From: an uncultured Gammaproteobacteria bacterium | GTDB taxonomy: Bacteria; Patescibacteriota; Patescibacteriia; Magasanikbacterales; UBA922 | Direction of reading: 5' to 3' | Length of the DNA stretch: 64,000 bases | Assembly: GCA_965231005.1 (NCBI GenBank) | Contig: OZ246405.1 | Span: 476,223 to 540,222, forward strand | Part shown: piece after piece, positions 4,383 through 47,200 of the stretch | Layout: every line of letters starts with the position of its first letter | Position numbering within the stretch: position 1 is the first letter of the stretch | The notes under the pieces: generated by a model | Database searches by the model: none | Seen by the model: only the letters and a program-made list of their open reading frames with translations | What the model was told of the DNA's origin: nothing | Translations under genes and position numbers: made by a program

Positions 4383-4958
4383 TTATCTTTTCTTACGTCT
4401 TTTAGTAGCTTTACGCTTTGCTGGCTTACGTTTCTTTGTAGCTTTACGTTTTGCAGGTTTACGCTTTTTAGCAGCTTTTCTCTTTTTAGGAGCAGCTTTC
4501 TTTTTGCGCTTTGCTGGCTTACGTTTTTTAGTAGCTTTACGTTTTGCAGGTTTACGCTTTTTCGCAGCTTTTCTCTTTTTAGGAGCAGCTTTCTTTTTGC
4601 GCTTTGCTGGCTTACGCTTTGCAACTTTACGTTTTGCAGGTTTACGCTTTTTAGCAGCTTTTCTCTTTTTAGGAGCAGCTTTCTTTTTGCGCTTTGCTGG
4701 TTTACGTTTCTTTGTAGCTTTACGTTTCGCTGGCTTACGTTTTTTAGTAGCTTTACGTTTTGCAGGTTTACGCTTTTTCGCAGCTTTTCTCTTTTTAGGA
4801 GCAGCTTTCTTTTTGCGCTTTGCTGGCTTACGCTTTGCAACTTTACGTTTTGCAGGTTTACGTTTCTTTGTAGCTTTGCGTTTCGCTGGTTTTCGTTTTG
4901 CAGCTTTTCTCTTTTTAGGAGCAGCTTTTTTACGAGTTGCGCGTTTTCGTGCTGGCAT
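4383..4958 (-). CDS. Lysine/alanine-rich histone H1-like (Hc1/AlgP-like) DNA-binding protein
   Basis: Product is MPARKRATRKKAAPKKRKAAKRKPAKRK... made of KRKPAKRKATKK-type repeats. A strong SD (GGAGGTG) sits 6 nt upstream of the ATG on the minus strand. The overlapping ORFs on other frames or strand are repeat artefacts. Confidence 0.7.
   Translation of the reverse strand: MPARKRATRKKAAPKKRKAAKRKPAKRKATKKRKPAKRKVAKRKPAKRKKKAAPKKRKAAKKRKPAKRKATKKRKPAKRKATKKRKPAKRKKKAAPKKRKAAKKRKPAKRKVAKRKPAKRKKKAAPKKRKAAKKRKPAKRKATKKRKPAKRKKKAAPKKRKAAKKRKPAKRKATKKRKPAKRKATKRRKKR
4390..4950. repeat. Tandem coding repeats (about 30-nt subunits, blocks of 90-126 nt) inside the histone-like gene
   Basis: The motif gcagcttttctctttttaggagcagctttctttttgcgctttgctgg recurs at about 4471, 4564, 4654, 4780 and 4900. 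Confidence 0.8.
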
Positions 4959-6876: not shown

Positions 6877-9051
6877 ATGAAAAAGGGAAATACCTTCTGG
6901 GTATGTACACTCTTGTTGGCCGGCTGCCTGGATGGTGAGCTGGACAACGATGTGATCGGCAAGAAGCAGTGCTTGGACACGTTCCAGGCAGAAGCTCTTG
7001 TCCTGGTCGACTGCGAAGAAACTGTCACATCTTGGTGTGGTGACAATTCAGACAACGAGGATTGCAAGAAGTTCCTGTCGTCTTCGGATGCGGGCGCTGA
7101 TGCAAGCGATGCTGCTGAGGACACTGACACCAAGGTGAACAACGACAAGTGCCAGAAACACAGCGACTGTCCAACACCGAGCAACCCGTGCAAAAAAGCC
7201 GCGTGCGGCAAAGACGTGAAGTCCGGCAACATGGTCTGTACCGAGGTGGGGCCTGAAACTTGCGGCAGCGATGCCAATGGTGATGGAACTGCTGATGGAA
7301 AGGCTGAGGATGCCGATGTCACCGAAGATGTTGGTAGCGATGCAGATACTTCGGACTCTGGTAGCGATGCCAAGGACGCAGGTGACACAGAGGACGGCGG
7401 AGACGTTGCCGAAGTCAAAGACGCTGATGATGCAAGTGATGGAGGCGCTGTTGATGCTGCTGATGCTGCCACCGCAGACACGTCTATGTTCGATGCAGGT
7501 GGCCACGATACTGACGCTGGTTCGGACGACGATGGCGATGCAGCAGGAGATGTTGCTGAAGTCAAAGACGCTGATGATGCAAGTGATGGAGGCGCTGTTG
7601 ATGCTGCTGACGCTGCAACCACAGACACGTCCATGTTCGATGCAGATGGTCAAACGGATGCAGGTTCGCACGACGTTGACGCAGGTTCTGTTGACACCAG
7701 TGGTGACACAGCAGATTCTGGCGTAGACACCAAGGCTGACACAACCACGCCTGCGTGCTCGACAAAGGACTGCGACGACAAGAACCCATGTACGACTGAC
7801 TCCTGTGACAAGCTGAAGGGCTGTGTGAACTTGGCAAACACTGCCACGTGTTCGGACGCAAATCCGTGTACGGTTGGCGATGTGTGTGCTGACAAGGTCT
7901 GCAAGCCTGGCAAGCCGAATACCTGTGATGACAAACTCGCATGCACGGTTGATTCTTGTGACAAGCTGAAAGGATGTGTCCACAAGACAGACAACAGCAA
8001 GTGCGACGACGGGAAGAAATGTACCGACGATACGTGTGTTGTCACAACAGGTTGCATTCACAAGCAGAAATCCGGTTGTGCTCCGTGCACCAAGGCGACC
8101 CGAAAGAAGGACTGCGACGACGGAAATGGCTGTACAGCTGACCTCTGCGTTCAGAGCGCTTGCTACCACGAGTCACTGGACCAAAAGCCCTGTGACGATG
8201 GGAGTAAGTGTACGCAGAGTGATGTGTGTAAGGACAAGACCTGCGCCGCAGGAAAGCAACTCGACTGCAACGACAAGAACGCCTGCACGGACGACGTCTG
8301 TGACCCCAAGACCGGCTGTACGCACAAGAACAACACCAACAAGTGTGAGGACGGGAGCAAATGCACCCTTTCTGATGTCTGCAAGGATGGGAAGTGCGTG
8401 CCGGGCAAGAAGCTCGACTGCAACGACAAGAACGCCTGCACGGACGACGCCTGTAACGCCAAGGCCGGCTGCACACACAAGCAGGATGATAACAACACGT
8501 GTGATGACGGCAACAAGTGCACCAGTGATGCATGCGTTGCTGGCAAGTGCGTCAGCAAGCACATTGCCGGCTGCAAGTCGGTCTCGGTTACCCTTACGGT
8601 CGCTTTGAACACCAAGTTTCAGACGTACATGCAAAACAATCAGCAGGGGCCTTGCAACAAAGCCTTGCGCATCTTTATCGAGAAGTGCGAGGCCAAGAAC
8701 GTCTACGGCAACAAAGTGGTCATCATCCCATCCGGGTTTTATGGAGACTACGATAAAGACATCGTCAAGCTGAAGGAGATAGTGTACACACATCCTACAA
8801 AAGCCGAGGCATGGGTGAAGGGGTCTGCAGATTGTCGCATCAACATCTCGGGCTACCTATCGGAGGTCAAAGACGCACTCAAGGATTATAAGTGTTGGGC
8901 GACGGTGAATCCTCCGAAGGGTGTTAACGAGCTGAAGCCCATTCTCACGACTTCTGCCGGCTGCACGTACGAGTATTCCCTTGCAGACACCTGTCTTCCG
9001 AAGGAACTTGGTTCGCTCATCTGGTGCAACAAAAAGCCCATCTGCAAATGA
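6877..9051 (+). CDS. High-GC, Cys-rich secreted lipoprotein with acidic D/A/G-rich region and about 8 Dictyostelium-type CTDC-like Cys repeats
   Basis: Signal peptide with lipobox LLLAGC. Repeats of the form C-D-D-K-N-x-C-T-x-D-x-C-D-x-x-x-G-C-x-H-K alternate with C-x-D-G-x-K-C-T variants. G+C and codon usage differ strongly from the flanks. Confidence 0.75.
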   Translation: MKKGNTFWVCTLLLAGCLDGELDNDVIGKKQCLDTFQAEALVLVDCEETVTSWCGDNSDNEDCKKFLSSSDAGADASDAAEDTDTKVNNDKCQKHSDCPTPSNPCKKAACGKDVKSGNMVCTEVGPETCGSDANGDGTADGKAEDADVTEDVGSDADTSDSGSDAKDAGDTEDGGDVAEVKDADDASDGGAVDAADAATADTSMFDAGGHDTDAGSDDDGDAAGDVAEVKDADDASDGGAVDAADAATTDTSMFDADGQTDAGSHDVDAGSVDTSGDTADSGVDTKADTTTPACSTKDCDDKNPCTTDSCDKLKGCVNLANTATCSDANPCTVGDVCADKVCKPGKPNTCDDKLACTVDSCDKLKGCVHKTDNSKCDDGKKCTDDTCVVTTGCIHKQKSGCAPCTKATRKKDCDDGNGCTADLCVQSACYHESLDQKPCDDGSKCTQSDVCKDKTCAAGKQLDCNDKNACTDDVCDPKTGCTHKNNTNKCEDGSKCTLSDVCKDGKCVPGKKLDCNDKNACTDDACNAKAGCTHKQDDNNTCDDGNKCTSDACVAGKCVSKHIAGCKSVSVTLTVALNTKFQTYMQNNQQGPCNKALRIFIEKCEAKNVYGNKVVIIPSGFYGDYDKDIVKLKEIVYTHPTKAEAWVKGSADCRINISGYLSEVKDALKDYKCWATVNPPKGVNELKPILTTSAGCTYEYSLADTCLPKELGSLIWCNKKPICK
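7395..7650. repeat. About 115-bp near-identical direct tandem duplication inside the lipoprotein gene
   Basis: Two copies of gttgc[ct]gaagtcaaagacgctgatgatgcaagtgatggaggcgctgttgatgctgctga... differ at 6 positions. The differences are not restricted to adenines. Confidence 0.7.
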
Positions 9052-9062
9052 GTTCAACAAAC

Positions 9063-9165
9063 GATCACCACCCTCTCCTCGCGCATGGTGATCTGCTGTG
9101 GGAGGCTCCGAGCCCGCTCTCGGAGCCTCCCCGGCGCGCATCTCCGAATATTACCATATTCGGAG
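9063..9165. terminator. Cluster of three GC-rich hairpins directly after the island gene
   Basis: GATCACCA...TGGTGATC, then GGGAGGCTCCGAG-cccgct-CTCGGAGCCTCCC, then CTCCGAATAT-tacc-ATATTCGGAG. A T-rich tail follows. Coordinates approximate. Confidence 0.4.
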
Positions 9166-9346
9166 CTCCTCAATTTTCATTTTGTTTATAGAAGTGAAAT
9201 TTGTAAGAGCTTAGAGAAAATAGCTGAAAAAACAGGATTTATGAGTCTTGTTTTTTTCATCTTTATTTGCTATGCTACTGATGTTTTTATAGTGATTGAA
9301 GCACAACGCTTATTGTTCCGAGTGAGAAAAATGTAAATGGGCCTGT

Positions 9347-9419
9347 GGGCCTGTAGCTCAGTGGTTAGAGCACAACGCTTATAACGTTGGGGTCGATGGT
9401 TCAATTCCATCCAGGCCTA
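9347..9419 (+). tRNA. tRNA-Ile with anticodon UAU (gene TAT)
   Basis: Manual cloverleaf fold. Acceptor is GGGCCTG/CAGGCCT with a G1-U72 wobble. D-arm GCTC-AGTGGTTA-GAGC, anticodon stem CAACG/CGTTG with loop CTTATAA, T-arm GATGG-TTCAATT-CCATC. No CCA is encoded. Confidence 0.7.
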
Positions 9420-9464
9420 CAGGCAGATTTACATTGTTTTCGAACGACGGAACAACCTATCAGG

Positions 9465-9504
9465 ATAACGTTGGGGTCGATGGTTCAATTCCATCCAGGC
9501 CTAC
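9465..9504 (+). repeat. Exact 40-bp duplicate of the tRNA-Ile 3' half (att-like scar or tRNA pseudogene fragment)
   Basis: ataacgttggggtcgatggttcaattccatccaggcctac at 9381-9420 is repeated 44 bp downstream. A further 14-nt exact match to the anticodon-arm region (agcacaacgcttat) lies upstream at 9300-9313. Confidence 0.85.
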
Positions 9505-9524
9505 GAGCCGATTTGAATTTTTTT

Positions 9525-10496
9525 ATGACTGACACCATACATATTTCTGAAGAAAACGCAGGCAAGCGCCTGGATGTTTTTTTAGTAGAAGAGACTGGTT
9601 TGAGCAGATCTCAAGTTCAAAAGAGCATTAAAGAACAGTCTGTATTAGTTAATGATGCTCCAGCAAAAAAAACAGGGCAACTTCTACATGCTGGTGATAA
9701 TATTTCTTTTCTTAAAAAGGAAGATGGCCCAACTATTTCAGCCACAAAGGAGCCTGTGCTGCATCCTTCGGATCATCCAATACACATTATTCATGAATCA
9801 AATGATTTTCTTGTTGTAGAAAAACCTGCAGGACTTCTTGTCCATCCAACACAAGCAAGCGAAAAAGATACATTAGCAGGGAGACTGATTCATTTGTTTC
9901 CAGGATTGGCTGGAGTTGGAGATAGTCCTGTCCGTCCGGGGATTGTTCATCGTTTGGATAGAGATGCTTCTGGATTACTTGTTGTCGCAAAAACACAAAA
10001 AATGTTTGAGCACTTAAAAAGTCAATTTAAAGCACGGACAATAAAAAAAGAATATGTTGTTTTAGTGCATGGACTTGTTGAAAAAGAATATGGCTCAATT
10101 GATTTTACCATTGATAGAGGAAAAGAAGGACGTATGGTTGCTCGGCCAAAAGTAACTCTGAATTTAAAAAACGTTAATAAAATGCAGCCAGGAAAAGAAG
10201 CATTAACAGACTATTCTGTTGAAAAGAGATTTGTTCGTCATACGCTTTTGCGCGTAAGAATCCATACTGGTCGTATGCATCAAATTCGTGTACACATGTT
10301 TGCTTTTAATCATCCAGTAGTAGGTGATACACTATATATTAATAAGAAATTATCTAAAAAAAGTGATAGGCCTCTTCATAGGATGTTTTTGCATGCACAA
10401 ACATTGTGCTTCCAAGATCTTTCTGGAAAAGAAATGTGTTTTTCTTCTGAACTTCCACAAGAGCTTCAATCGTATTTAGATGAATTTGATACATAA
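9525..10496 (+). CDS. rluD: RluA-family 23S rRNA pseudouridine synthase (RluD-like) with N-terminal S4 domain
   Basis: Catalytic motif HRLDRDASGLLVVAK is present. I placed the start at ATG 9525, because the longer ORF from TTG 9387 would run through the tRNA. Confidence 0.8.
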   Translation: MTDTIHISEENAGKRLDVFLVEETGLSRSQVQKSIKEQSVLVNDAPAKKTGQLLHAGDNISFLKKEDGPTISATKEPVLHPSDHPIHIIHESNDFLVVEKPAGLLVHPTQASEKDTLAGRLIHLFPGLAGVGDSPVRPGIVHRLDRDASGLLVVAKTQKMFEHLKSQFKARTIKKEYVVLVHGLVEKEYGSIDFTIDRGKEGRMVARPKVTLNLKNVNKMQPGKEALTDYSVEKRFVRHTLLRVRIHTGRMHQIRVHMFAFNHPVVGDTLYINKKLSKKSDRPLHRMFLHAQTLCFQDLSGKEMCFSSELPQELQSYLDEFDT

Positions 10497-21773: not shown

Positions 21774-24700
21774 ATGACGCGACTCGTCCGAACATACAAG
21801 TTTTTAGGTATTTTAGCATTCCTATGTTTTGCATTGGTGTGGTATTTTACTATTGGTTATGGACAACTTTTTGCACCAAAAGCAAAAGGAGTTGTGAAGC
21901 AATGGGCAACAGGTGCAAATGGAAACTGGAATGTTGCTGCAAACTGGGAACCATCTGGAATTCCTACAGCAACCGACGATGTTGATTTAACAACAACAAC
22001 TGGAAGTTATGTTATTACTATCCCAGACGGATATACAGCAGAGTTTGCAAGTTTTAATGCAAATTCAGGCCAAGGACTCAATGTTCGTTTAATAATGTCA
22101 GGAGATATTAGTACAAATGGTAACGTGACATTTGGTTCAAGCTCAACGTTTACGCTTGCCACATCTTCTCCTATTTCAATTGGTGGAAATTTAACAGTTG
22201 AAAGTGGTGGTGATATTCAAACAGATGGAACGGTTACAAATATTGTTCATTTGACTGCAGCAAATATTGATATTCAAGCTGGTGGTGAAGTCGATGTTGA
22301 TGGTCTTGGACATGCAGGTGGAACCTTTACAAATAATGGAGATGGCCCAGGGGGAGGAATATATGGTTCAGAAGATGCCGGTTCTGGTGGTGGGCATGGT
22401 GGTCTTGGTGGAAAGGATGCAACAGCAGCTTCTCCGGGTGGAGGAGGATATTGTGATATTACTGCACCAACGACAGCTGGTTCTGGTGGTGGTGGAGGAG
22501 GAAATCAAACTGGTGGTTCTGGAGGAGGAATTATTCAGCTTGTGACTGCGGGCTCGTTAACTATTGATGGAACCATAACTTCAAATGGAGATAATGGTGG
22601 GACAGAATCAAGCAGAGATGCTGGTGGTGGGGCTGGTGGAAGTGTTTTCCTTCTTGCATCAACAACAGTTGGTACTGCTGGTACTGTACGAGCAAATGGA
22701 GGAAATAGTGGAAATGGAAATGATTCTGGAGGTGGTGGAGCTGGCGGATGTGTTAAATTGCAATTTAATACCAATTCTTTTCCTATAACAAGTATCCAGG
22801 CTTACGGTGGAACAGGAAATCAGTATGGTGGTGCTGGACAAATTTATATTAAAAATGATGTTTTGTCAGACGATGATCTTTATATTATTAATGATGGAAA
22901 TAATGGGACAACACCTGCAGATACGCAGCAGATTGCTGCCTCTTTGACAATGGATTCTCTAACACTTGCGAGTTCTTCAGTCTATGCTGTGACAAGTACA
23001 AATGCTTTGACACTTAATGATGCCGATCCACTTACTGGAGGAAATACGTCTGGAACGTTACGTATTGATAATACTGCAACGTTCACTCCTCCAGCGGCAT
23101 TTACTCTTTCAAACGCTACATTAGAATTTACAGAAGGAGCAACTTGGACTGCCTCTTCGACTTCAGATCTTACGATTGGGTCAAATGGAACATTGGATTT
23201 GCGTAACTTTACAACAACGACTGGTTTGACATTAGATGATTTTACTATCAATTCTGGCGGAACAGGAACACATGGGGCAAATACAACTGCACAAACGCAT
23301 GTATTTCATATATCGGCAACAACAACAAATATTCTAGCAGGTGGAACTATTGATGTAGACGGAAAAGGATATACAGGTGGTTCCACAACAAACGATGGTA
23401 ATGGACCTGGTCCAGGACAGTTTGGTCCAATAGAATCAGGTTCTGGAGGTGGACATGCGGGTGCTGGAGGTTCAAATGAACAAAATACTGCTGGTGGTAG
23501 TGCATATTGTGTTACAAATAATCCTGGAACAATTGGTTCTGGTGGAGGTGGTGGTGGAAATGTATCTGGTGGAGCTGGTGGTGGACTTATCAAGCTTGAT
23601 ATGTCCTCTACGCTTGTTGTTGCTGGAACACTTACTGCAGATGGTGCTGTTGGTGGAGATGAAGCTGGTCGAGATGGTGGAGGAGGGGGTGGAGGGGCCG
23701 TCTATCTTTCTGGAACAATGCTAACACTTAATGGATCAACCATTACGTTAGATGGTGGAAATGCTGCAAATGGAGATAATTCTGGTGGTGGAGGTGGTGG
23801 TGGATGTTTTTATGCTTTGTATGACACATATTCAGACGATACTGCAACAACAAGTACGGCTGCAGGTACTGGGCAGACCTCTGCTGGCTCTGTTGCTGTT
23901 GCTGGGACATGGACTTTGGCAGTAAACAATAATGCTCCATCAGTGACTGCATTTACTGCTTTGGCAATAACAGATGGTACAGGCTTGGTCAGGATTTCAA
24001 CCACAACAGTTAGTGATGCAGATGATGATGCTGTTACGCTTATCGTTGATTATTCTATTGATAATGGCACAACCTGGGCATCATCATCAATTAGAGAAGC
24101 GTCTGCAGATGCAGGTGGAACTCCAGCAACCTCTACTGGTTCAATTGGTCCAATTAGTATTGCCACTTCAAATAACGTAAGTTTTGAGTGGCATTCGAGG
24201 AATGATAGTGTTGTTACAAGTACAGAGGTTTGGATAAGAATAAGTCCAAATGATGGAACAGAGTATGGGACAGCCGTAACAAGCACACTTGCGTTTGAAG
24301 TGGACAATGAGGATCCGACTGTTCCAGAAAATCTTACTATATTTAATACATCGACAACGAGCGTCATATTTGGTTTAGGAACAACATCAACCGATAGCAA
24401 TTTTCTTGAATATAAAATATTTTATAAACAAGGTGCATCTGGTGTTACAGAATCTGATACTGCATACACGTCTACGACAGATGCTAATTTTGGTGATTCT
24501 AATTTTAACTCAGCAGTTGTGTCCACTAGTATTGGAGGCTTGTCTGTAAATACACAGTATGTTGCTGCGCTGTATGCGTATGACAGTTTTGGAAATAGCA
24601 CGTCAACTGCAGGAGAAATTTCATTTTACACATTAGCAAGTGCGCATGGCACACCAACTGTTGCAACTCCTGGAATAACAGACATGCAAATTAATTTTGT

Positions 24701-27700
24701 TGATACATTAAATAGTACAACGACAGAACTTTCTATTTATAACATCACTGATGCACAATATGTCAATGCATTTGGTCTATCATCTGCTACACCAGTTTGG
24801 CAGACAACTTCTACATGGGATTTAAATTTTGAAATAAGCGGTCTTAGCACAAGTACTCCATATCAATTTGAAATAGTTGCAAGAAATGGAGACGGCATTC
24901 CCACAGTAAGCTCATCTGCAAGTCTGCCGCTATATACGCTTGCTGAAACTCCTGGGACTCCTACAATTGGTTCTGTAGCAACGACAACAATGCCGATTAC
25001 CATTGCACCGAAAGGGAATTCTACATCAACAGAGTACGCAATTTATAATACATCAGATGATAATTTCTTATCAGCAACTGGGGCATCTACAGCAAGTCCT
25101 GTTTATCAAACAACATCTACATGGGGGACATCATTTGCTGCAATAGGATTGAACACAAGTACACCATATACATTTGAAGTACTGGCAAGAAATGGTGATC
25201 AAGTTCTCACTGCAAGTTCTACAGTGAGTGCAGGAACATATACATTGGCAGAGGCAGCTGGTGCTGCAACAATAAGTTCTCCTACGCTCACTACACTTCA
25301 GATTGCATTAGATGACGTGGGGAATTCAACATCTACTTCTTATGCGGTTTATAGTTTAACTGACTCGGCCTATGTTGGTGCAAACGGTGTTTCAAGCACA
25401 ACAGCTGTATTTATGACAACGTCAACATGGGCAACTGTTTCTTCAACAAGTTTGACTGCAAATACATCATATTCGTATGAGGTTGTTGCCCGAAATGGTG
25501 ACTCAGTTGATGCTCCATCGTCAACAGCAAGTACTGGTGTGTTTACACTAGCAAATGTCCCATCTCTTGGTTCAGTTTCAAGTAATGGAGATCAAATTAC
25601 AGTGTCTTTCTCTGGTGATGCAACACAGTATTCTGTTGAAAGTACAAGTGGTGGACTAAGTTCAGGATGGATTAGTGGCTCATCATATGATTTCACAAGT
25701 TTAGATTGTGGCCAGACATATACATTTAGAATTAAAGGACAAAATGGTGATGCAGTAGAAACAGGTTATTCAGGAACTGACACTGGAGAAACAGCAGGTT
25801 GTGGTGGAGGTGCTGCAGCTGCTGCTACAGTTACAAAAACAGTAAAAAAGACAGTTGAAAAAGTAGAAAAAGTTAAAGAAGAAGTGAAAGAAAAAGTTGT
25901 CGAAGTAAAGAAAAAGGTTACTGATGTCGTGAAAAAAATATTTTCAAAGAATAAAACATCAGCCCCAGCTACAGGGAATACTGCAGGTGCAGGAGGAGCG
26001 AGTGGTGGCGCTTCTGGTGGAGGATCAGCAGGTGGTAGTTCAGGAGGTCAAGCAAGTGCACCACCAACAATAGATGCTGCTGTTTCTTTGGCAAAAGAAG
26101 GTCGTGTTGTTGAAGCAACAAATAGTCGACAAGTAGACATTGTTCTTGAAACAGGATTTTCAAAAGTGACATTGCTTGATGATGCAGGAAATATTTTAGA
26201 AAATATTGATATCAACCCAATTATTCCTTGGCAGCTTGCTGCAGGTGATGGAGAAAAATGTGTGACAGCAGTATTTTATGATGCGCTTGGCAATGAAGCA
26301 GGAAGAAAAGTAACATGTGTAAATTTAGATACAACACCACCTCGAGCACCATTCATTCAAAATGCTCAGACAAAGATTGCACTGACAGATATTTCAACGG
26401 GGCGTCTGGTCACTGTAAGAGGTACGAGCGAACCAAATATTGGTATTCTTATTTCTGCAGTACGCACAGGTGACATTTCAGAAAGTGATTTATCTGTGAA
26501 CATAAATCCTTTCCACATATATACAGTACATGCTGCTGGCACACAGACATTTAGAACCCAGTCCGATGACAAAGGTTTTTGGTCATTTACATTCCCAGAA
26601 TCGTTTGACGTTGGAAAATATTCCATTTCTGTTCAAGCAGAAGATAAGGCAGGAAATGTTTCTGAACCTGCGACTGCACAAATTTCTGTCTTACCAAAAA
26701 ATATTGCAAAAGTTATAAAAGCGGTTATTGATAATCCAGAAGTTGAACGTATTAATGAAACAATTGTTGCACCTGCTGTTATTGCAGTTGGTGGTGCAAA
26801 TGTCGTGGCAACTGGTTTCCAATTACCACAAGTATTCATGTTCTTAAAATATTTGTTCTTGCAACCAGTTCTCTTGTTTAGAAGAAGAAAACACAAAGGA
26901 TGGGGAACAGTATACGATGGATTTACAAAAAAACCTGTTGACTTAGCAAGTGTTCGGTTTGTTGATGCAAAAACAGGTGCTATCCGACGTTCACAAGTAA
27001 CAGATGTCCAAGGAAGATACTTCCTTATGGCTGACCCAGGATCGTATAAGATAGAAGTAGATAAGCATGGATTTGGTGGTATTAGTAAGCATTTAGAAGG
27101 GATTGAAACAGATGGAGATTATGCACGTGTGTATCATGGCGAAGAATTGACAATCAGTGAAGGTCAAACAGAAATTAATTATAGTGTGCCAATTGATCCA
27201 GAAGGAAAAGAAGTACCAGCTCCAAAATTAATTCGTAAGAGTATTGTTCGTGCAGTGCAACATATTATAAGTATTGTTGGTATGGGATCAACATTCTTAT
27301 CATTTGTTATTTCTCCAACGCCAACAATTGGTGGTTTCCTTGTTCTCCATGTTGGATTTTATGCATTGTCACATAGATTTTCAAAGAGCAAATTGCCAGA
27401 CTCATTTGGTGTTGTATATGATGATAAAAAGGAAGCGCTCCGTAGAGTTGTTATTCGGGTATTTGATTCTGCCTACAATAAATTAGTCGATACACAACTT
27501 ACTGATGCAAAAGGAAGATACGCATTGCTTGTTGGTCCAAGTAAGTATTATGTGACCTATGAAAAACCTGGATATGAAAAGAAACAAACAAAAGAAATGG
27601 ACTTTTCAAAAGAGCATGGCGGTATGATTACAACAGACGAACGTCTTAGAAGAAGTGGGAAACCAATGTCCAAGAAGGAAAAAGAGGCATTTGAAAAAGA

Positions 27701-27866
27701 GCAAAAAGAAATGCGTGATGCCGCAAAGGAATCAATTGCCAAAAGAAAAGCAGAAGGAGAAGCTGGGGAAGCAACAGGGGAACACGTTGATCCTGAAAAA
27801 CTTATTGCACAGTGGAAGCAAGACCATGGACAAACGCAGGACGATGGTGTACAGTCACAGGAGTAG
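21774..27866 (+). CDS. Giant (2030 aa) surface protein with Gly-rich beta-helix-like region, about 5 FN3-like ~100-aa repeats, internal TM segments and carboxypeptidase-regulatory-like domains
   Basis: N-terminal signal or TM. Repeats of the form YTLAE.PG.PT...NSTSTEY.IYN...TTSTW...TSTPY.FEV.ARNGD. Two copies of a GTVYDGFTKKPVD...DV(Q/K)GRY pattern after a TM helix. Confidence 0.65.
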   Translation: MTRLVRTYKFLGILAFLCFALVWYFTIGYGQLFAPKAKGVVKQWATGANGNWNVAANWEPSGIPTATDDVDLTTTTGSYVITIPDGYTAEFASFNANSGQGLNVRLIMSGDISTNGNVTFGSSSTFTLATSSPISIGGNLTVESGGDIQTDGTVTNIVHLTAANIDIQAGGEVDVDGLGHAGGTFTNNGDGPGGGIYGSEDAGSGGGHGGLGGKDATAASPGGGGYCDITAPTTAGSGGGGGGNQTGGSGGGIIQLVTAGSLTIDGTITSNGDNGGTESSRDAGGGAGGSVFLLASTTVGTAGTVRANGGNSGNGNDSGGGGAGGCVKLQFNTNSFPITSIQAYGGTGNQYGGAGQIYIKNDVLSDDDLYIINDGNNGTTPADTQQIAASLTMDSLTLASSSVYAVTSTNALTLNDADPLTGGNTSGTLRIDNTATFTPPAAFTLSNATLEFTEGATWTASSTSDLTIGSNGTLDLRNFTTTTGLTLDDFTINSGGTGTHGANTTAQTHVFHISATTTNILAGGTIDVDGKGYTGGSTTNDGNGPGPGQFGPIESGSGGGHAGAGGSNEQNTAGGSAYCVTNNPGTIGSGGGGGGNVSGGAGGGLIKLDMSSTLVVAGTLTADGAVGGDEAGRDGGGGGGGAVYLSGTMLTLNGSTITLDGGNAANGDNSGGGGGGGCFYALYDTYSDDTATTSTAAGTGQTSAGSVAVAGTWTLAVNNNAPSVTAFTALAITDGTGLVRISTTTVSDADDDAVTLIVDYSIDNGTTWASSSIREASADAGGTPATSTGSIGPISIATSNNVSFEWHSRNDSVVTSTEVWIRISPNDGTEYGTAVTSTLAFEVDNEDPTVPENLTIFNTSTTSVIFGLGTTSTDSNFLEYKIFYKQGASGVTESDTAYTSTTDANFGDSNFNSAVVSTSIGGLSVNTQYVAALYAYDSFGNSTSTAGEISFYTLASAHGTPTVATPGITDMQINFVDTLNSTTTELSIYNITDAQYVNAFGLSSATPVWQTTSTWDLNFEISGLSTSTPYQFEIVARNGDGIPTVSSSASLPLYTLAETPGTPTIGSVATTTMPITIAPKGNSTSTEYAIYNTSDDNFLSATGASTASPVYQTTSTWGTSFAAIGLNTSTPYTFEVLARNGDQVLTASSTVSAGTYTLAEAAGAATISSPTLTTLQIALDDVGNSTSTSYAVYSLTDSAYVGANGVSSTTAVFMTTSTWATVSSTSLTANTSYSYEVVARNGDSVDAPSSTASTGVFTLANVPSLGSVSSNGDQITVSFSGDATQYSVESTSGGLSSGWISGSSYDFTSLDCGQTYTFRIKGQNGDAVETGYSGTDTGETAGCGGGAAAAATVTKTVKKTVEKVEKVKEEVKEKVVEVKKKVTDVVKKIFSKNKTSAPATGNTAGAGGASGGASGGGSAGGSSGGQASAPPTIDAAVSLAKEGRVVEATNSRQVDIVLETGFSKVTLLDDAGNILENIDINPIIPWQLAAGDGEKCVTAVFYDALGNEAGRKVTCVNLDTTPPRAPFIQNAQTKIALTDISTGRLVTVRGTSEPNIGILISAVRTGDISESDLSVNINPFHIYTVHAAGTQTFRTQSDDKGFWSFTFPESFDVGKYSISVQAEDKAGNVSEPATAQISVLPKNIAKVIKAVIDNPEVERINETIVAPAVIAVGGANVVATGFQLPQVFMFLKYLFLQPVLLFRRRKHKGWGTVYDGFTKKPVDLASVRFVDAKTGAIRRSQVTDVQGRYFLMADPGSYKIEVDKHGFGGISKHLEGIETDGDYARVYHGEELTISEGQTEINYSVPIDPEGKEVPAPKLIRKSIVRAVQHIISIVGMGSTFLSFVISPTPTIGGFLVLHVGFYALSHRFSKSKLPDSFGVVYDDKKEALRRVVIRVFDSAYNKLVDTQLTDAKGRYALLVGPSKYYVTYEKPGYEKKQTKEMDFSKEHGGMITTDERLRRSGKPMSKKEKEAFEKEQKEMRDAAKESIAKRKAEGEAGEATGEHVDPEKLIAQWKQDHGQTQDDGVQSQE

Positions 27867-38247: not shown

Positions 38248-41200
38248 ATGCTTTTCAACACAAAGCACAAAAAAACAAAATCAGTATTTCTCAGTATCTT
38301 TCTTGGAGTGTTTTTGGCTGTTGAAATAGTTGGATTTACATTTTTAGCAAAACCTGCACATGCTGCTGGACTTCCTGTTGTCGATGCTGTTGCCTCTGGA
38401 CAACGTGCAAGTAGTAGTGTGTGGGATACGATTTTGAAAACACTCTATGCAACTGGGTTGAGTGCGCTTATGACAGGTGTTTCGTATATGACACGTAAGA
38501 TCGCATACGACACAGCAGTCTATGCGGCAACAGGATTTAAAGGGCAAAAGCCACTTATCTTTACAGATAGATGGGATGAATATTTAGCAACCGAAGGTGG
38601 AAATGCAGCTGCAACAGCCATTGATCAATTTGGAGAGTCGTTTGGGTTGAATCTTTGTGGTTTCCCGAATGTGAGATTGCAGGCACAAGTCCAAATTGGA
38701 CTTCGAACATTGTACGATCAAGATCAGTTTGGTGTTTCAGGACCACAACCGACCTGTTCTTGGCAACAAGTTTCAGAGCTTTGGGATGCAGAAAATTATA
38801 CCAAGCTTGGAGATTCCGCATTAAATGTCTTTAGTGATGCAATAAGTGTACGAGAAAGTGACTTTGGTATTACACTTGCAGCAATTGAAAAAATCGATCG
38901 ATTCCAAGCAGTACAACAACAAGCAAAATTTTTAGAACGACTTGAAGGAAAAGGATATAAAGCTGTGAAAGGTCTTATTTCAGATAATATCAGAACACCA
39001 GCAAACATTGTTGAAGAAGAAACAAAGGTCCTTACAGCAAAACATCAAGGAGAAATAACATATAGTCAAATTTCTGGTATTTATGGTTCAGGAGCATTGG
39101 AAATTTTACCACAGGCTGCATCTGTCTTTATTAACACATTTTTGAGTCAAGGATTAAATAATTTATTGACAGAGGGACTTGTTCCAGACAAAGCACCTTC
39201 AGAATCAGGAGATGGTGTTGGCAGTTATTATGCTGAGTCAATTGTCAGTAGGAAAAAAGCAACAGAACAAGCATTTAGTTACTTATTTACTGCAGTTCCA
39301 AAGAAACAACTTGGTGCATACGATGCACTTGCAGAGCTTGCAGCATGTCCAAAAAACAGTACAGGCTTAAACAACTGTGTAATTGACGAAGGATTAAAAC
39401 AAGCAATCACTCGTGCAAAGCAGGGTGAGGCACTCACCATAGAAGAAGCAATGGCACCCAATGTTGGGTTGCTCAATGGAGACTGGCCACTTATTTCACC
39501 ACTTCGTATTGCAGATAATACAGATCTTGATTGTAGGTTAAAAGGATATTGTTATTCAAATATTCAAAAATTGAGAAAACTTCGTGTGCTTCCAACAGGG
39601 TTTGAAATTGCAGCACTGCGATCTGATCCAGACAAGCCATGGACACTTCGGCAAGTTGTTGAAGGATATAACAACTGTGATTTTCTTGATCCACCAAAAA
39701 ATACAAAAGTAAAATACAATCCAAAAAAACCATTTTGCCGACTTATTGATCCAAATTGGATTATTCGTCTTCCAGAAACACGTTGTGAATCAACAGTGTT
39801 TGGACCTGAGCTTGTAACAGATGGTTCTCCAGATCGACGAGAAGAATGTGTTGATATTTCTACCTGTATTACAGAGGGACCAAATGGAGAGTGTATTGGA
39901 GATGAATATTATGGATACTGTACGCGAGAACAAAATATCTGGCATATTGGACAAGAATCATGTCCTGCACAATTTAATACATGTAAAACATTTGTTGATG
40001 CTGGTGGTTCTGCTCGTTCTTATTTATCACGAACCATAGATTATGGTGCATGTAATATTGATACGGTTGGTTGTCGTGCATATAGCTTGGAAAGAAAAAA
40101 TGTTGGTCAAGCAGCGTCTCCATGGAAACACAGTGACGAGGTAAATCTTGAATTGAAAAAATTGGGGCGGAATCAAGTCATGTACTTTAATAGTAAAGTT
40201 GCAAACTTCTCATGTCAGGGTGGAGAAGGATGTAATGCGTTCTACCAAGCAGAAGAGACAGATACAGGATATAAAAAACCTGCACAACCAAAACCTATTT
40301 ATTTGAAAAAAGCACCAGACTATCTAGGTTGTTACGATACAAACCCAACACAGCTTGGTATTCAATGGCCAAAAACAAAGAGTGATCTTGCAGCGCTGCC
40401 AGGTCATCCAGCATGTAATTCATTTGCAAATGTTTGTCTTCCAGAAGAAGTAGAATGTCAACAATACAATGCCGTTGCATCTGGCAATGTTGTTTCTGGA
40501 ATTATTGGAACCAAGTTTGCATGTGACGAAGTCTGTGTTGGTTATGATGCATTTAAACAAGAAGCATCATCATTTGAAAAAGACAAATATCCATTGTACT
40601 TCATCCCAGACAATGCAAGATCATTTATGGAAATAAATAATCTTTCTTGTTCTGCAGCAGAAGTCGGATGTGAAGAATTTACGAATCTAAATACAGAAGA
40701 TCTTGAATACTACACAAACATTAAATACTGTGAACAACCAGATGGAAATAATGAAAAAGCATTTTATTCTTGGGAAGGGGATCAGGCAACAGGATTTGTA
40801 TTGAAGACTCATAAATTACTACAAATTGACCAAGAAGAATTTAGCTATATCAATGACAATGCAAAGCCAGCACTTGGAGCATCGAGCGTTGCAAAAGTAT
40901 TCCCTATTGGTTCTCCAGCATATGCAGAAGATAGTAAGAAAAAACTAGAAGCACAGTATGCTATTTGTAATGAAACATTGTACAAGAATTTGGTGAACAA
41001 TGTTCCAAATGCACCAAAAGCTGATGCAGATTGTCGAGCACTATATGACGATGATGGAAAAGTATTTTATCGTTTGTTAGCAAATACTGTCGTTGTTTCA
41101 GATCAATGTCAGGACTTAAGAAGGACAACAGCAACATTTGAAGTTGATACAGACATTGCTTCAAAACAAGCATGTGATAACAAAGCAGGTGTGTGGCAAA

Positions 41201-44200
41201 ATAATCAGTGTCAACGATGTATGGGCGGTGGTGAATTTAAGAATGGAAGTTGTGTCTACGCTGCAATTACTGGTGTAGGCCAATCAACATCATGTACACC
41301 AGCTGCAAATGGATGTCGAAAATATGTTGGAAGCACTGGAAATAATACTGGTGACATATTTAAAGATGAATTTGAACCAAATACTCCTGATGATATAAAT
41401 AAAGCAGTTGAAGGATATGCTGCAACAGGAGGCAATGGAGTTGCAAAGATGGCAACAGAATCAATTCAGGTTGGACTTCATTCTCTTCAAGTTGATGCAA
41501 AAACACTCACACGAACAGTGCCAGTTGCTTCTATTCTTCCAGGAGAAGATGATTTATATGAAATTTCATTCTGGGCAAAAGGTGGACCACTTGCTCTTAC
41601 AATAGAATTAAAAGGTGAAGGCAATGTTTCATATACACTCACACAAAATAATCAAACTGGTCAGGCATCATCTGCATCTGTTGGAAATGAGTGGCGACAA
41701 TACAAATATGGCCCAGTTCGAATTGATAAAGAAGTGAAAAAACCAACACTTGTATTTACATCAAAAGTAAATGGCATTGGTTCAACATACTTCTTGGACA
41801 ACCTCCGCTTTACTCGAATTACAGACACATATTATCTTGTAAAAGATTCATGGAAAACACCAGAAGGATATGATGTTCCATTGATTTGTGATGCAAAACC
41901 AAATGATCCATTCCCAGGTACAGCTCTTGGCTGTCAGGCATATACCTTTACAAATAGTGATGGAAATACACAGCAAGCATTTGCAACTGGTTTTGAAAAA
42001 CTTTGTCGACAAGATGCTATTGGATGTGAAGCACTGTATGACACATATAACACTGTTGAAATTCCATTTGCAGAAGATGCACATATTTATAAATTAGAAT
42101 GTAGCAATACAAATACACCTGTTACAAAAAATACAACATGTGAACTTACCTTTGGTGGAAAGAACCTCGATGATGGATCTTGTACAATTGGCGTTGGTGA
42201 AACAACCTGTCTTGTTGACCACATTACACTTGAAAAAGCTACAGATGTAGATAAGGTTGGAAATGGAAAAGTAGTAAAATCAACAATTATTGTTCCAGAA
42301 GATACACCAGAAAGTGATCCTATTTTCCTTACAAATCGTGATGAATTTACCTGCCAAGGAACACAGCAAGGATGTCAGCGTGTTGCACTTGAAGAGCAAA
42401 AGGTAAAAGCGACCAGTACGACATATTCATTCCCAAGTGAAGCAACAGTACTCAATAACCCAGACACATACTTAGACAACAATAACAGTATTTTATGTTC
42501 ACAAGATACTGTGGGATGTTCACAATTTGGTGGAAGTGCTGGTACATCATTTTTCAAAGATCCACTCCTTACAGGAAATAGAATTTGTGATTATAGAAAA
42601 GATGTTGAAAAAGATGGTGAACTTGTCAGTGGTTGGTTTAGATCAAATTCAGAAGGCAATGTTCCATGTTATGACAAATTCTTAGAAGAAAGTGGTGTCT
42701 ATGGTATTAATTCAAACAAGTCAACATTTTATGAGGGATTTGTAGGAGCATGTCCTGCACAGTTTGATCAATGTACAGAATTGGTCGACAGATATGATAT
42801 AAGTGAAGAATTTCCAAAAGGAAAACCATATTATTCATTATTCAATGCTCAACTTCTCAAGAGTATTGATGAATGTGGTGGACAAGCAAGTTTGAAAGAA
42901 GGATGTGTCTTGTTCGACAGGACAGAAGATCCAAAGAAATCATACAATGCTTCTGCCACATATGACGCAAGTGAACAAAAAGGATTTATTTCAGTTCCTC
43001 CAATTTCTTCTGCAATACAAGGCAATGATTCAAATGTTATTTTGAAAGTTGGTCGTGACAGAGCATGTAGTGAATGGCTTGCATGTAAAACTGCAGTAAC
43101 CAAGAAAGATGATAAAGGTGTGCCACAGCGACTGTGTTATGACTTCCGTGCTTGTGACGAAGTGAGTGGGGGAGAGTGTGCAAATTGGAAAGATTATGGA
43201 TTTGGAGATGAACTCTTAACTGATGAAAAATATGTCACACGAGATGCGTCGTGGCATGGTGAAGACTATACTGGATACTCATTATTGAACAAATATCAAA
43301 TTACCTATTATGATTATATTGTAACGGGGACTCCGTTTATGGTGTATAAAATGCATCCAGATTACTTTGCAGACAATGAACAGTTTGATTGTATTGAAAA
43401 TGGACAAGCAAAGACGGACTGGAGTGTATGTGGATTTGCTCCAAATAAGGGACGTTGTTTTGACGGACAATGTATTCAACCTGTTGCAGCACCGTTCCCT
43501 ATTGATGCTGATGAAAATTCTCCTGGAAAAGTACTAAAAGCGCTTGGTGATAATACTCAATGTAAGGCATATCCAGAGAAAACAGCACCATTTCCACAAT
43601 CAGTGCTAAAGCAGGTTGCAACTGAAAAGAAAAATGAAGCCAAAAAACAAAATCCAAAAGCGCAAAGTGGACAAGACAGCATGATACCACTTGTTGAAGA
43701 TAATAATGTTATAAAAAAGCAAGTTCGATATGAATTTCCATATCGAAAAGCAGGATTTAGTCAGGTGGGCATCTGTCAAGGAAAGGATGATTGTTCTTGT
43801 AGCTATACAAAGGTTGAATATGGTAGTCCACTTGATGTAGATTATTGGAGTGCAAAACAAAAACAAGAAAAAAGTATTCCTCCAGGACAATGTGTTGGTG
43901 GAGACAACGCAGGTGATCCTTGTTCAGAAGATAGTCATTGTTTCTCAGGAACATGTGGAAAAATAACACGACAAGAAGATCATCTTGGTTTGACTGGTTT
44001 CTGTTTAGAACGAGACCTAAGTCGTCCAATTGATGGGGGAGAAGATCTAAATGGAGATAAAAAGTTCGCATGTCTTACTTGGCTTCCAATTGATGTAAAT
44101 CCTGCAGGACTAGATAATTATAATTTATTCCAAGGTGCTGGATATTCACCATCACTTGATGCTGTGACAGAGAAAAAACAGATTGGTGGGGAAGTTATGT

Positions 44201-47200
44201 GTAGACGTTCAACTGCTATTGGTGCTGGACCGTATGATAAAGCGCTATTGCCTGTATTTAAGGATACATCTGGTACATATTTCAACAAGCAATATCCAAT
44301 TTGTTATGATGATAGTAGTGATCCAAACCAGAATTTGCCTGTTCAAAATCTTTGTGGTGCTCCACAGCCATTTGCAAATGATTCGGATAAATTCAACAAT
44401 AAGGGGGCTGTAATTCAGTATAGCTGTGATTCATCTGATCATAGTGATTTTAATAGATATAGAATGGTCGCATGTAATGCAACAGGAAATAAGAGGAAAG
44501 ATTTCTATGAAGCAATTTTGAGTTGGGCACGGAAAGATGGTTTTGGATTAGTAGGGTCTGGACAAAATGTTGTTGTGCTTAGGACAGAAACAGGGCATGA
44601 GAGTAAATTGACTTCTAAAAATGAGGGAAAAGATATCTATCCTACTAAATTGATACCAATAGATGAGTGGGATGGTATGACCAAAAAAACAGATGGTTCT
44701 TGTTTCACAAACCAACCACAGGCTGGAGGGACAGAAGGAAAGCTCATTGTCCGTCATCCTCCACGGTTATGGAACGAAGAACAAGGAAAATTTAAACAAA
44801 TAAAATACTTTACTCAGGGACCAAATGCAGAGGTCTGGCATCATGAGGGTAATTATTACCAGGATGAGAAGGGTTGTAAGTCGTTTGACGGAAAACTAAA
44901 TGTCTCTGGTGTTGCGGCGTATCCAGGCGAAGTATTTTATGATGAACAGCGAACAAAGGATTATTTATATCGTTCGCCATATGAACTTGTGATGAATCGA
45001 CGTGATTTGAATAAAGTATTCTTTGTTCCAACACTGTTCCCAGGAGGTGCAGAAGGAAATAATCCATTACTCCTTTCAAAGCAAGTGTACATTGATTTCG
45101 CAGAGCTTGATGCACGACTTGATAAGTATACAAAAGGTGAAGCGCAAACATTGAGCATGAAGAATTCTGTGAAAGGATTCCCAAATGATAGTGTACTTGA
45201 TGAAGACGATGGAGAATACAAATATAAAAATGCTGGTGATAATTTTAATGGTAAGTTTATTGATGCTGAAGTGTTATTTGCACCAGAGGATTCATCGCAA
45301 TTAGCACCTGGAGGTTTCAAACCAACAGTTAACAAAGATAATGCCGTCTACACATATGTAGTTACTCCATCACAAGATAATGATTTGAATAAAAAACACT
45401 ATGAGTTATATGAAGGTTCGGGAAGCGATCCAAAGTTTGCAAAAGCTGCAAAGGACTCCAGAAATTATATTGATCGCCGGTATGTATTGGTGTATCACAA
45501 TGATCACAATGCAAAGAAGACAAAAGCAGGCATGAATAATAAGTTGCGGAATTTGGAGTGGATAAGAAATAATTTAGATAAAAATACTGGAATTCCGAAA
45601 GCAGATCCGTTTACTGAGAAGGTTGTTTGTGATAAACGTTTGGCTTTTCCAACAGATGATAAATCTGATGAGACAGATGAAGATCGATATGGAGGAAACA
45701 ATTGGTTTGCTATTGGTATGGACTTTAATAAGAATGGAGAATTTCTTGGCTATGTTTCTCGATGGTGCATGCAAACAAACAACAATGCTTTAGAAGATGG
45801 TGGAATTAACATGGCCGTCATTGCACAAGTGAAAGATCAATGTGTTGACTATGTTCAGGTCAGTGATACAACAAAAGATGGAGTAGAAGATGTTCCAAAT
45901 AAAGCATGGACAAATCGTGTATGGATAGACGCTCCGTGGCAAGCCGGTATTAGTGGAAGACTTTTGCCAGATGTTGATATACGACCATTTGGTAGTACAG
46001 AATTAACTGGAAAAGATCTTCAAGTTTATAAGAAAGAGAAACCTAATGAAATTAATGTAGATGTTGTAAAAGCTTTATCAGAAAGAAGAATTACAAATCC
46101 GAAAGTCGATGGGTATCCGTTTGTCTGTATGAATCCTCTCATCAAGGGATTTGGTTTTGCAAACATAAATGCATTTGGTAGTGATAATGCATGTGGTGGT
46201 GTAGAGCTTGGTGTTGGTAGTAATTCAAAAAGTGGTATTAAAAATCCTGAAAAGGAATTCAATGATGCTTCGACAAGACTGTATAATTTATTTGCTCGTT
46301 CATACAAAGTTGTACAACGTGCAGGAGATGTAGGATTTGCAAACAAGAGTCAGTGGAATACGTGGGATGGAACTGACTATGCAAAGGATTCTAAAAAGTG
46401 GCTTGCAGGCTCAAATGTGATTGGTGGAATAGAAGACAGAGGAAACAAGGTTGGAAAAGATTTGAGTCCACCAGTTATTTATTCATTAAACCCACAGACA
46501 TGTTTCAGAGAAACTGGTGCTACATGTGGTGTTGGTGAAAAAGACAATATTACAGTTTCAGAAAAGAATGGAACAAGAACAGATTATAATGGTGATGAGA
46601 TTTCTGACGAAGACCCACAAGGAATAGGACTTCATGAAGCAATTATTAGAAACAAGAACTTTGGTGCAGTAGTAAACTTCTATGCTGCTGCAGACGACAA
46701 TAGAATGCCACTACGTCGTGTTATGATGAATTGGGACGATGGATCATTTACCAATGATGAAACATTTGGTCGATACAAAAACCACAAACCATATTGTGAT
46801 ACAGCAGAGGCTGCGCAAAAAGATAAGAAAGATCCAGACAACAGAAAACCAGATGTTGGTCTTTGTATGAGAAAGTCAGATACGATTCCTTCGCTTATGA
46901 CATGTCAGGAAGACAAGGATTGTCCTGTTGTAGCAGAAGGTCAAGAGCCGTATGAATGTGCAAAAGCAGATGCTGGGCAAGGTGAATTAAAACTTCCAGG
47001 ATATATTAAAAAAGGTGTGTCAGATCATGGTACATACCAAGAACCGCGATTTGGAAATGCACCACGTGCATGTGAAGACAATTTCTTCGAATTCAGACAT
47101 GGGTACACGTGTCCAAAAGATTTCCAACAAAAAGTAAATCAAACAGCGTTTGGTGGAAAGCATGGATATGTTCTTTCTCCAGATACAATTGCAAGACTTG

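Follow-up and report, generated by a model that had tools for sequence, protein, structure and literature searches.

Probable in-place replacement of a tRNA-Ile(UAU) gene by a hairpin-flanked cassette within its anticodon loop in Magasanikbacteria

When mobile DNA inserts into a tRNA gene, the function of the invaded gene is normally preserved, either by means of a partial copy, as with integrases, or by splicing, as with introns. Direct repeats running from the anticodon loop to the 3′ end of a tRNA gene are the classic footprint of integrases acting at the anticodon loop. Bacterial MITEs and palindromic repeats (Correia/NEMIS, ERIC, and RUP) are non-coding, comprise ~150 bp with long imperfect inverted repeats, and form a hairpin when transcribed. 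Regarding nucleases, SegB, a free-standing GIY-YIG homing endonuclease of the tRNA cluster in T-even phages, promotes the inheritance and amplification of tRNA regions (PMC13096335), and is the nearest published concept that we found for the tRNA-linked GIY-YIG module described below. Furthermore, tRNA-Ile with a UAU anticodon is unusual among studied or cultured bacteria (PMC3575796). In our search, which covered the literature incompletely, we came across no account of either GIY-YIG genes or nested cassettes at the tRNA-Ile(UAU) locus of Patescibacteria.

Here, we analyzed a 64-kb stretch of DNA (referred to as the window) in which a complete tRNA-Ile(UAU) gene is nested between two pieces of another. 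ARAGORN identified one tRNA-Ile with the anticodon TAT at 9347–9420 (+), and the Rfam tRNA model assigned 74.5 bits to the same interval (gathering score 29); the gene shows the canonical cloverleaf and UAU anticodon of a tRNA-Ile2(UAU). Its last 40 nt (ATAACGTTGGGGTCGATGGTTCAATTCCATCCAGGCCTAC) occur in two exact copies (9381–9420 and 9465–9504), spaced by 44 nt with a repeat period of 84 nt, for which shuffles predicted 0 chance matches. Upstream, a 23-nt remnant (9291–9313) matches the intact tRNA with 20/23 identity, including 14 exact nucleotides (AGCACAACGCTTAT, 9300–9313). It ends with CTTAT in the anticodon loop, 33 nt ahead of the intact gene, and tRNA positions 1–13 have decayed past recognition. 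The initial annotation had already reported the UAU anticodon, the exact repeat 44 bp downstream, and the 14-nt piece. The former two were confirmed, and the latter proved to be exact, yet part of the longer match and at a distance of 33 instead of 35 nt. The resulting layout consists of an outer 5′ piece, an arm, a complete tRNA, a second arm with a tail, and an outer 3′ piece, both outer breaks being located in the anticodon loop:

9248–9276 (+): promoter-like block of the resident tRNA gene, by homology (TTGTTT, 17 nt, TATGCT, with an upstream TG)
9291–9313 (+): remnant of the 5′ part of the outer (resident) tRNA-Ile(UAU) after decay; positions 14–36, 20/23 identity
9314–9346 (+): left arm of the cassette (leader of the inner tRNA, 33 nt), inverted complement of 9421–9455
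9347–9420 (+): inner tRNA-Ile(UAU), intact and probably the working gene (ARAGORN; Rfam)
9421–9455 (+): right cassette arm (35-nt trailer of the inner tRNA), pairing with 9313–9346
9456–9464 (+): tail of the cassette (CCTATCAGG, 9 nt), unpaired in all folds
9465–9504 (+): 3′ half of the resident (outer) tRNA-Ile(UAU), positions 35–74, in its ancestral place; exact 40-nt copy
9505–10496 (+): resident trailer and rluD (RluA-family pseudouridine synthase, start ATG 9525; homologs with 50–61% identity)

An assembly duplication, considered from the outset as an explanation for the repeat, was excluded, because the arrangement is identical in L001 and L002 (k127 contigs of the same organism from other sequencing runs) and the 84-nt period fits into a single read. 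Look-ups with RluD and Gmk revealed two other assemblies with the same arrangement, no strain-level variants with an empty or filled site, and a Logan contig broken off at this repeat. Across the 64-kb window, there were no further copies of the tRNA pieces, the arms, or the cassette, and the other tRNAs of the window, two tRNA-Ser genes, are free of comparable debris. The 3′ half at 9465–9504 alone has no RNA family match in Rfam. The inner copy is the likely working gene, which is supported by its score, by its sequence being identical to the single-copy tRNA-Ile(UAU) of L015 and L031, and by the usage of AUA in the window (10.7 per 1000 codons, higher than AUC). Past the tRNA end, the likeness of the two 3′ copies extends for 20 nt more (9421–9440 versus 9505–9524; 14/20, p about 5e-4). 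This could reflect co-conversion or a local origin, though the arms are also homologous to cassettes elsewhere.

The UAU anticodon had been regarded as uncommon, which holds true for cultured bacteria but not for this lineage. In Magasanikbacteria, a UAU tRNA-Ile is the standard, and 49 species share an identical tRNA-Ile(UAU) anticodon arm. Like the unmodified UAU of tRNA-Ile2 from Mycoplasma mobile (PMC3575796), the anticodon would read AUA directly and not by the CAU-plus-lysidine route; different from that case, the feature spans the Magasanikbacteria lineage. Neither a PP-loop (SGGxDS) ORF nor a CAU tRNA is encoded within the 64-kb window, a small part of the 1.23-Mb genome.

Homologs of the downstream RluD place the source in Candidatus Magasanikbacteria (Patescibacteria), and a 1.23-Mb contig encodes the exact protein. 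In many Magasanikbacteria, tRNA-Ile(UAU) is followed by RluD homologs with 50–61% identity. The genes downstream of the locus are rluD, gmk, rplS, and uvrA, and the nearest relative on record (L003–L008, RluD identity 61%) matches the gene order of the window, i.e., DUF389, a 237-aa protein, a large Cys-rich protein, tRNA-Ile(UAU), rluD, gmk, rplS, and uvrA. Its single tRNA ends 3 nt ahead of the rluD ATG, and the tRNA-to-rluD gap is mostly about 3–30 nt in same-strand loci of relatives. In the window, this conserved rluD-proximal place is occupied not by the intact gene but by the 3′ half-copy, which ends 20 nt ahead of the ATG. On the other side, the block at 9248–9276 aligns with a conserved TTGATT-17-TGCTATTAT of L025, L051, L015, L048, and L003, which stands about 10 nt ahead of tRNA-Ile(UAU) in these relatives; in the window, it adjoins the 5′ fragment and not the intact tRNA. 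A sigma-70 consensus scan of 9000–9700 returned no site, and the block is weak compared to the consensus; its homology suggests a putative promoter role. As the conserved flanks adjoin the fragments, the promoter-like block with the 5′ fragment and the 3′ half with rluD represent the two sides of the resident gene, and the 151 bp between them (9314–9464) are therefore an insert in its anticodon loop.

At the junctions of this insert, the outer fragments face each other across the anticodon loop (CTTAT, insert, ATAACG), a helix starts at the exact end of the 5′ fragment (CAACGCTTAT/TGTTCCG), and the 3′ half-copy begins at once after the 9-nt tail (CCTATCAGG/ATAACGTTG). This helix, which comprises about 36 bp between leader and trailer, is continuous with the acceptor stem and presents the tRNA at its tip. 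The left arm ends with an 8-nt repeat of the 5′ strand of the acceptor stem. The fold of the whole unit (9310–9462) reached z = −7.2, and the arms alone, with the tRNA swapped for a tetraloop, still reached z = −6.1. Terminal inverted repeats, as known from MITEs, are thus present in the window, and also in the loci L053 and L063 introduced below. Candidate target-site repeats are a perfect TATAA at three junction pairs in L053 and TAAAA and TATAA in L063; in the window, the overlap is AT only, or TATTG ... GATAA if a decayed TATAA is assumed. No match to intron or ribozyme families of Rfam was obtained, even at E ≤ 1.

Compared to integrative elements and prophages that target tRNA genes by anticodon-loop tyrosine integrases, the locus shares the tRNA target and the breakpoint in the anticodon loop, as well as incoming DNA that would restore function and a displaced 3′ half left as a direct repeat. 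However, it comprises neither an integrase nor cargo, the insert has only 151 bp with inverted-repeat flanks, a whole tRNA gene is carried instead of a 3′ part, and a displaced 5′ remnant is left as well. The cassette resembles MITEs (Correia/NEMIS, ERIC, and RUP) in its size of ~150 bp, its inverted repeats, its lack of coding capacity, and the occurrence of several copies in L053, but differs by a functional tRNA gene at the hairpin tip, by being seen only in the anticodon loop of the same tRNA species, and by a putative target duplication that is TATAA in L053 and only AT in the window, with no transposase seen. Anticodon-loop introns of tRNAs (bacterial group I; archaeal bulge-helix-bulge and split tRNAs) share the insertion site and paired ends that extend the anticodon stem. 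Here, in contrast, no ribozyme or intron family matches, the outer "exons" are decaying pseudogene pieces, and function would be kept by replacement instead of splicing. A tRNA intron (group I or BHB) was rejected, as there is no Rfam intron family and the outer 5′ "exon" lacks positions 1–13. SegB (PMC13096335) is resembled by related genomes in the form of a GIY-YIG gene beside the tRNA, duplicated tRNA segments, and tandem amplification (L066). Different from SegB, the predicted nuclease of these relatives is chromosomal, bacterial, single-domain, about 87 aa long, and confined to one candidate phylum, and the window lacks the gene.

Nested arrangements were found in three cases only, i.e., the window, L053 (from a genome collection), and L063 (metagenome contig Ga0307992_1008167). 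In the latter two, the anticodon loop of an outer tRNA-Ile(UAU) is again interrupted by a leader, a complete tRNA-Ile(UAU), and a trailer, with leader and trailer pairing. The acceptor stems of inner and outer genes differ (CGTCCAT in GCGCCTG for L053; GCTCGCA in GCGCCCA for L063), and each is internally complementary, which argues for the inner gene as the incoming one in both loci. Their outer 5′ halves are damaged, by a 1-nt deletion in L053 and by a 22-nt GC-hairpin insertion together with T36A in L063, and their outer 3′ halves have remained nearly intact.

Across the three cassettes, the arms align collinearly (left, GAGTGAGAAAAAT.TAAAT; right, ATTTA.AT..TTTTCGAACGACG..ACAA.CT.ATC). The left-arm block GAGTGAGAAAAATGTAAAT is common to all of them, and the tail CCTATCAGG aligns with CTTATCTCGAT of the L063 cassette. 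BLAST of the window arms against all fetched loci gave no significant match, and it took position-matched pairwise tests to reveal the homology to L053 and L063. The right arms of the window and L063 reached a local score of 15, compared to 6.5 ± 1.3 for shuffled sequences (0/5000 reached 15; p < 2e-4); the other five pairwise arm tests were modest (p = 0.006–0.02). An alignment fold revealed that the arm helix is kept in the three cassettes with four pairs changed two-sidedly, and that all acceptor pairs are compensated. L053 contains two further copies of the hairpin without a tRNA, each flanked by TATAA in the anticodon loop or in a duplicate of the loop; all three hairpin copies are located at the tRNA locus, and no transposase was seen. 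Identity of RluD is 0.56 between the window and L063, and about 0.5 or less between L053 and the others. As cassette-free relatives are closer by RluD identity (L003 to the window, 0.61; L065 to L063, 0.87), the carriers do not form a clade. This distribution would fit either horizontal spread of the cassette or its precise loss many times.

To place the locus in its lineage, we used a survey by a 25-mer scan for the anticodon arm, with one genome per species, which yielded 49 loci, nearly all from Magasanikbacteria and with the source genome absent. The tRNA-Ile(UAU) is located either just upstream of rluD on the same strand, at a distance of mostly 6–30 nt, or divergent from it. Extra tRNA-Ile(UAU) pieces were present in about 17 of the 49 species-level loci and most of them break at positions 34–38, in agreement with the early view of this tRNA as a recombination hot spot. 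Directly after the intact tRNA, at least ten genomes encode an 85–91-aa ORF with the Pfam GIY-YIG catalytic domain (E = 1e-13), which applies to L011, L019, L020, L022, L024, L028, L064, L065, L067, and L069. The canonical unit comprises a promoter, a pseudo-tRNA, the intact tRNA, GIY-YIG, a second pseudo-tRNA, and the neighbor gene, and in its pseudo-copies positions 23–33 are replaced by a conserved GC hairpin (TCCCGAY-N3-4-RTCGGGA). Distinct from these, small GC-rich hairpins (e.g., TCC..CGGCGGACArGC) were observed at varied positions in pseudo-tRNA copies of AT-rich genomes, i.e., L063 (outer tRNA, after position 12), L048, L014, L052, and L064.

Several genomes illustrate how unstable the locus is in this lineage. 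Three acceptor-stem types coexist at one locus in L065, and the functional and pseudogene types are swapped relative to L063, its 87% relative. L061 represents the unreplaced state of a gene that is seen as a pseudo-copy in L011, L019, and L052. In L066 (1340–2240), the whole unit of pseudo-tRNA, tRNA, and GIY-YIG is tandemly duplicated with a period of about 414 bp, so that the intact tRNA-Ile(UAU) gene and the nuclease gene are each present twice; in L039, the GIY-YIG ORF is reduced to a stub. Whether it includes GIY-YIG or not, the module is flanked by the same two neighbors, an HD-like gene (237–242 aa) and rluD, and its orientation varies between genomes, with L022, L053, and L063 contrasting with L065, L067, L069, and the window. 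The GIY-YIG subfamily comprises 18 clusters, all from Magasanikbacteria. No member maps to the 1.23-Mb contig of the source genome, and tblastn with three family members detected no such ORF in the window at E ≤ 1. Two stretches of the insert were considered as remnants of this ORF and rejected. For the 44-nt spacer, 68/300 shuffles performed equally well or better (all units, both strands), and a match by eye with the 3′ end of the L067 ORF fell short of significance on full search; for the left arm, 15/300 shuffles did so.

Based on anatomy, flanks, and relatives, we consider it fairly probable that the tRNA-Ile(UAU) gene was replaced in place by a non-autonomous, hairpin-flanked cassette that inserted within the resident anticodon loop. 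The resident tRNA-Ile(UAU) would first have been located between the conserved promoter and rluD. The 151-bp cassette (9314–9464), consisting of a complete tRNA, imperfect inverted arms of ~35 bp, and the 9-nt tail, would then have entered the TTATAA of the resident anticodon loop and split the gene, whose 5′ part would have decayed to the 23-nt remnant and whose 3′ half would have persisted beside rluD. The inner copy would have taken over AUA decoding, probably transcribed from the old promoter. We infer this direction of events, as well as mobility, from comparison to L053 and L063: the cassette appears to belong to a small homologous family of hairpin-plus-tRNA units in Magasanikbacteria that have this target in common and resemble non-autonomous mobile DNA in their behavior. 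As a working copy of the destroyed gene arrives with the element, its insertion would be harmless and its simple loss lethal. The lineage-specific GIY-YIG nuclease that occupies this slot in other genomes may be the mobilizing enzyme, or a transposase may be responsible; the nuclease qualifies as a candidate solely by its presence at the locus in sister genomes. A role of the long helix as a processing substrate is speculation.

A bolder version of this reading, which we put forward tentatively, describes a minimal selfish element of ~150 bp whose sole cargo is a working copy of the essential tRNA it disrupts. It would home into the anticodon loop and replace the resident gene, so that the host could not lose the element, and serial turnover of this kind in Magasanikbacteria, probably via the single-domain GIY-YIG acting in cis or in trans, would have produced the competing acceptor-stem variants and the pseudo-tRNA debris. 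Independent of this bolder version, we interpret the locus as one instance of a hitherto undescribed turnover of tRNA-Ile(UAU) genes that extends through the lineage and is linked to a small GIY-YIG nuclease.

Other origins of the arrangement were weighed against replacement by a cassette. Tandem duplication of tRNA and trailer, template switching, and deletions trimming the older copy could in principle create the locus by local rearrangement, without any mobile element. Template switching at the quasi-palindrome of acceptor stem and anticodon stem-loop would make the leader the reverse complement of the trailer, and the 8-nt tandem repeat of the acceptor 5′ strand in the leader is expected of a palindrome growing outward from the acceptor stem. 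The 40/40 identity of inner and outer 3′ halves, the likeness of the two trailers, and the lack of a mobilizing enzyme in the window are in line with such an origin as well. We nevertheless regard it as unlikely, given that the arms are homologous to cassettes of two distant genomes whose closer relatives lack them, that the inner and outer acceptor stems of L053 and L063 differ by fully compensated pairs, which is unexpected for a recent local copy, and that breakpoints at the same loop positions recur in independent genomes. Descent from a homing unit (intact tRNA, GIY-YIG ORF, partial tRNA, and rluD), with the nuclease gene deleted later, is the less probable still. The canonical units of L022, L024, L065, L067, and L069 occupy the same slot and would leave an intact tRNA followed by a 3′ half beside rluD, and the stub in L039 illustrates such decay; but the spacer has no significant likeness to the ORF, the TCCCGAY..RTCGGGA hairpin and the D-loop piece of those partial copies are absent from the window, and the upstream 5′ fragment and the inverted arms are not accounted for.

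The initial annotation had interpreted the repeats as scars of integration or excision at the tRNA, with the island immediately upstream as the partner. In this scenario, a tyrosine integrase would have mediated integration into the tRNA followed by near-complete excision, with the GC-rich upstream gene as cargo. Repeats reaching from the anticodon loop to the tRNA 3′ end are of the type left by such enzymes, and GC content jumps sharply upstream. The block in question (6877–9051, +) has 54% GC, compared to about 37% for the genome, and codes for a secreted Cys-rich protein of 724 aa with repeat units of the CxDxNxCTxDxC type. A homolog in L003, which matches Pfam Dicty_CTDC, has the same position and a similar composition (51–54% GC, compared to about 35% for its genome; E = 1e-38 for the repeat region), and the adjacent 237-aa protein to the left is 64% identical between the window and L003. 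Given the conserved position of the gene and its equally high GC content in the nearest relative, this composition reflects an old resident gene and not recent cargo, which speaks against the proposed island; moreover, the gene lies on the wrong (5′) side. Pfam analysis of ten flanking proteins, i.e., ABC transporter subunits, DUF389, and proteins without assignment, revealed no recombinase, integrase, or transposase within about 10 kb, and hence no integrase gene beside the tRNA or an att site. The direct repeats do not bound variable cargo, as they enclose 44 bp and the GC-rich gene is outside. A phage or viral attP partner was dropped as well, since exact scans found no viral contig with the tRNA 3′ half or anticodon arm. 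With the 36-bp leader–trailer helix and the 5′ fragment also left unexplained, integrase scars are highly improbable, and replacement by a cassette accounts for the arrangement better.

Instead of a partial copy or splicing, whole-gene replacement by a tiny non-coding cassette appears as the solution at this locus. In sister genomes, a module linked to a nuclease fills the same slot and leaves pseudo-tRNAs in layers. Replacement of this kind, if confirmed, would represent a new persistence strategy of selfish elements, i.e., addiction through an essential tRNA, and a ready-made natural case of a tRNA gene being replaced site-specifically in uncultured bacteria with reduced genomes. It would also explain the wide variation of tRNA-Ile(UAU) acceptor stems between close relatives.

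Regarding other features of the window, the Cys-rich gene is followed by a perfect 13-bp GC hairpin (GGGAGGCTCCGAG/CTCGGAGCCTCCC, 9100–9131) and a second palindrome (CTCCGAATAT..ATATTCGGAG, 9144–9167), which probably constitute its terminator region. A 191-aa Lys/Ala/Pro-rich, histone-H1-like protein is encoded at 4383–4958 (−) by 93-nt tandem repeats (3.7 copies, 90% matches). Three giant ORFs are located on the plus strand at 21774–27866, 38248–47403, and 50282–55288 (2030, 3051, and 1668 aa, respectively). Lastly, the locus reveals annotation errors. The N-termini of public rluD calls (window 9387–10496; P0001, P0002, P0004, P0022, and P0097) run through tRNA DNA (e.g., MVQFHPGL... and PVAQWLEHNAYNV...), and P0001 (366 aa) is wrongly extended through both tRNA 3′ copies, the true start being ATG 9525. 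Half-tRNAs of this kind can confuse tRNA counts in metagenome-assembled genomes, and the tRNA DNA translated at the start of several RluD entries shows the same tRNA–rluD adjacency.
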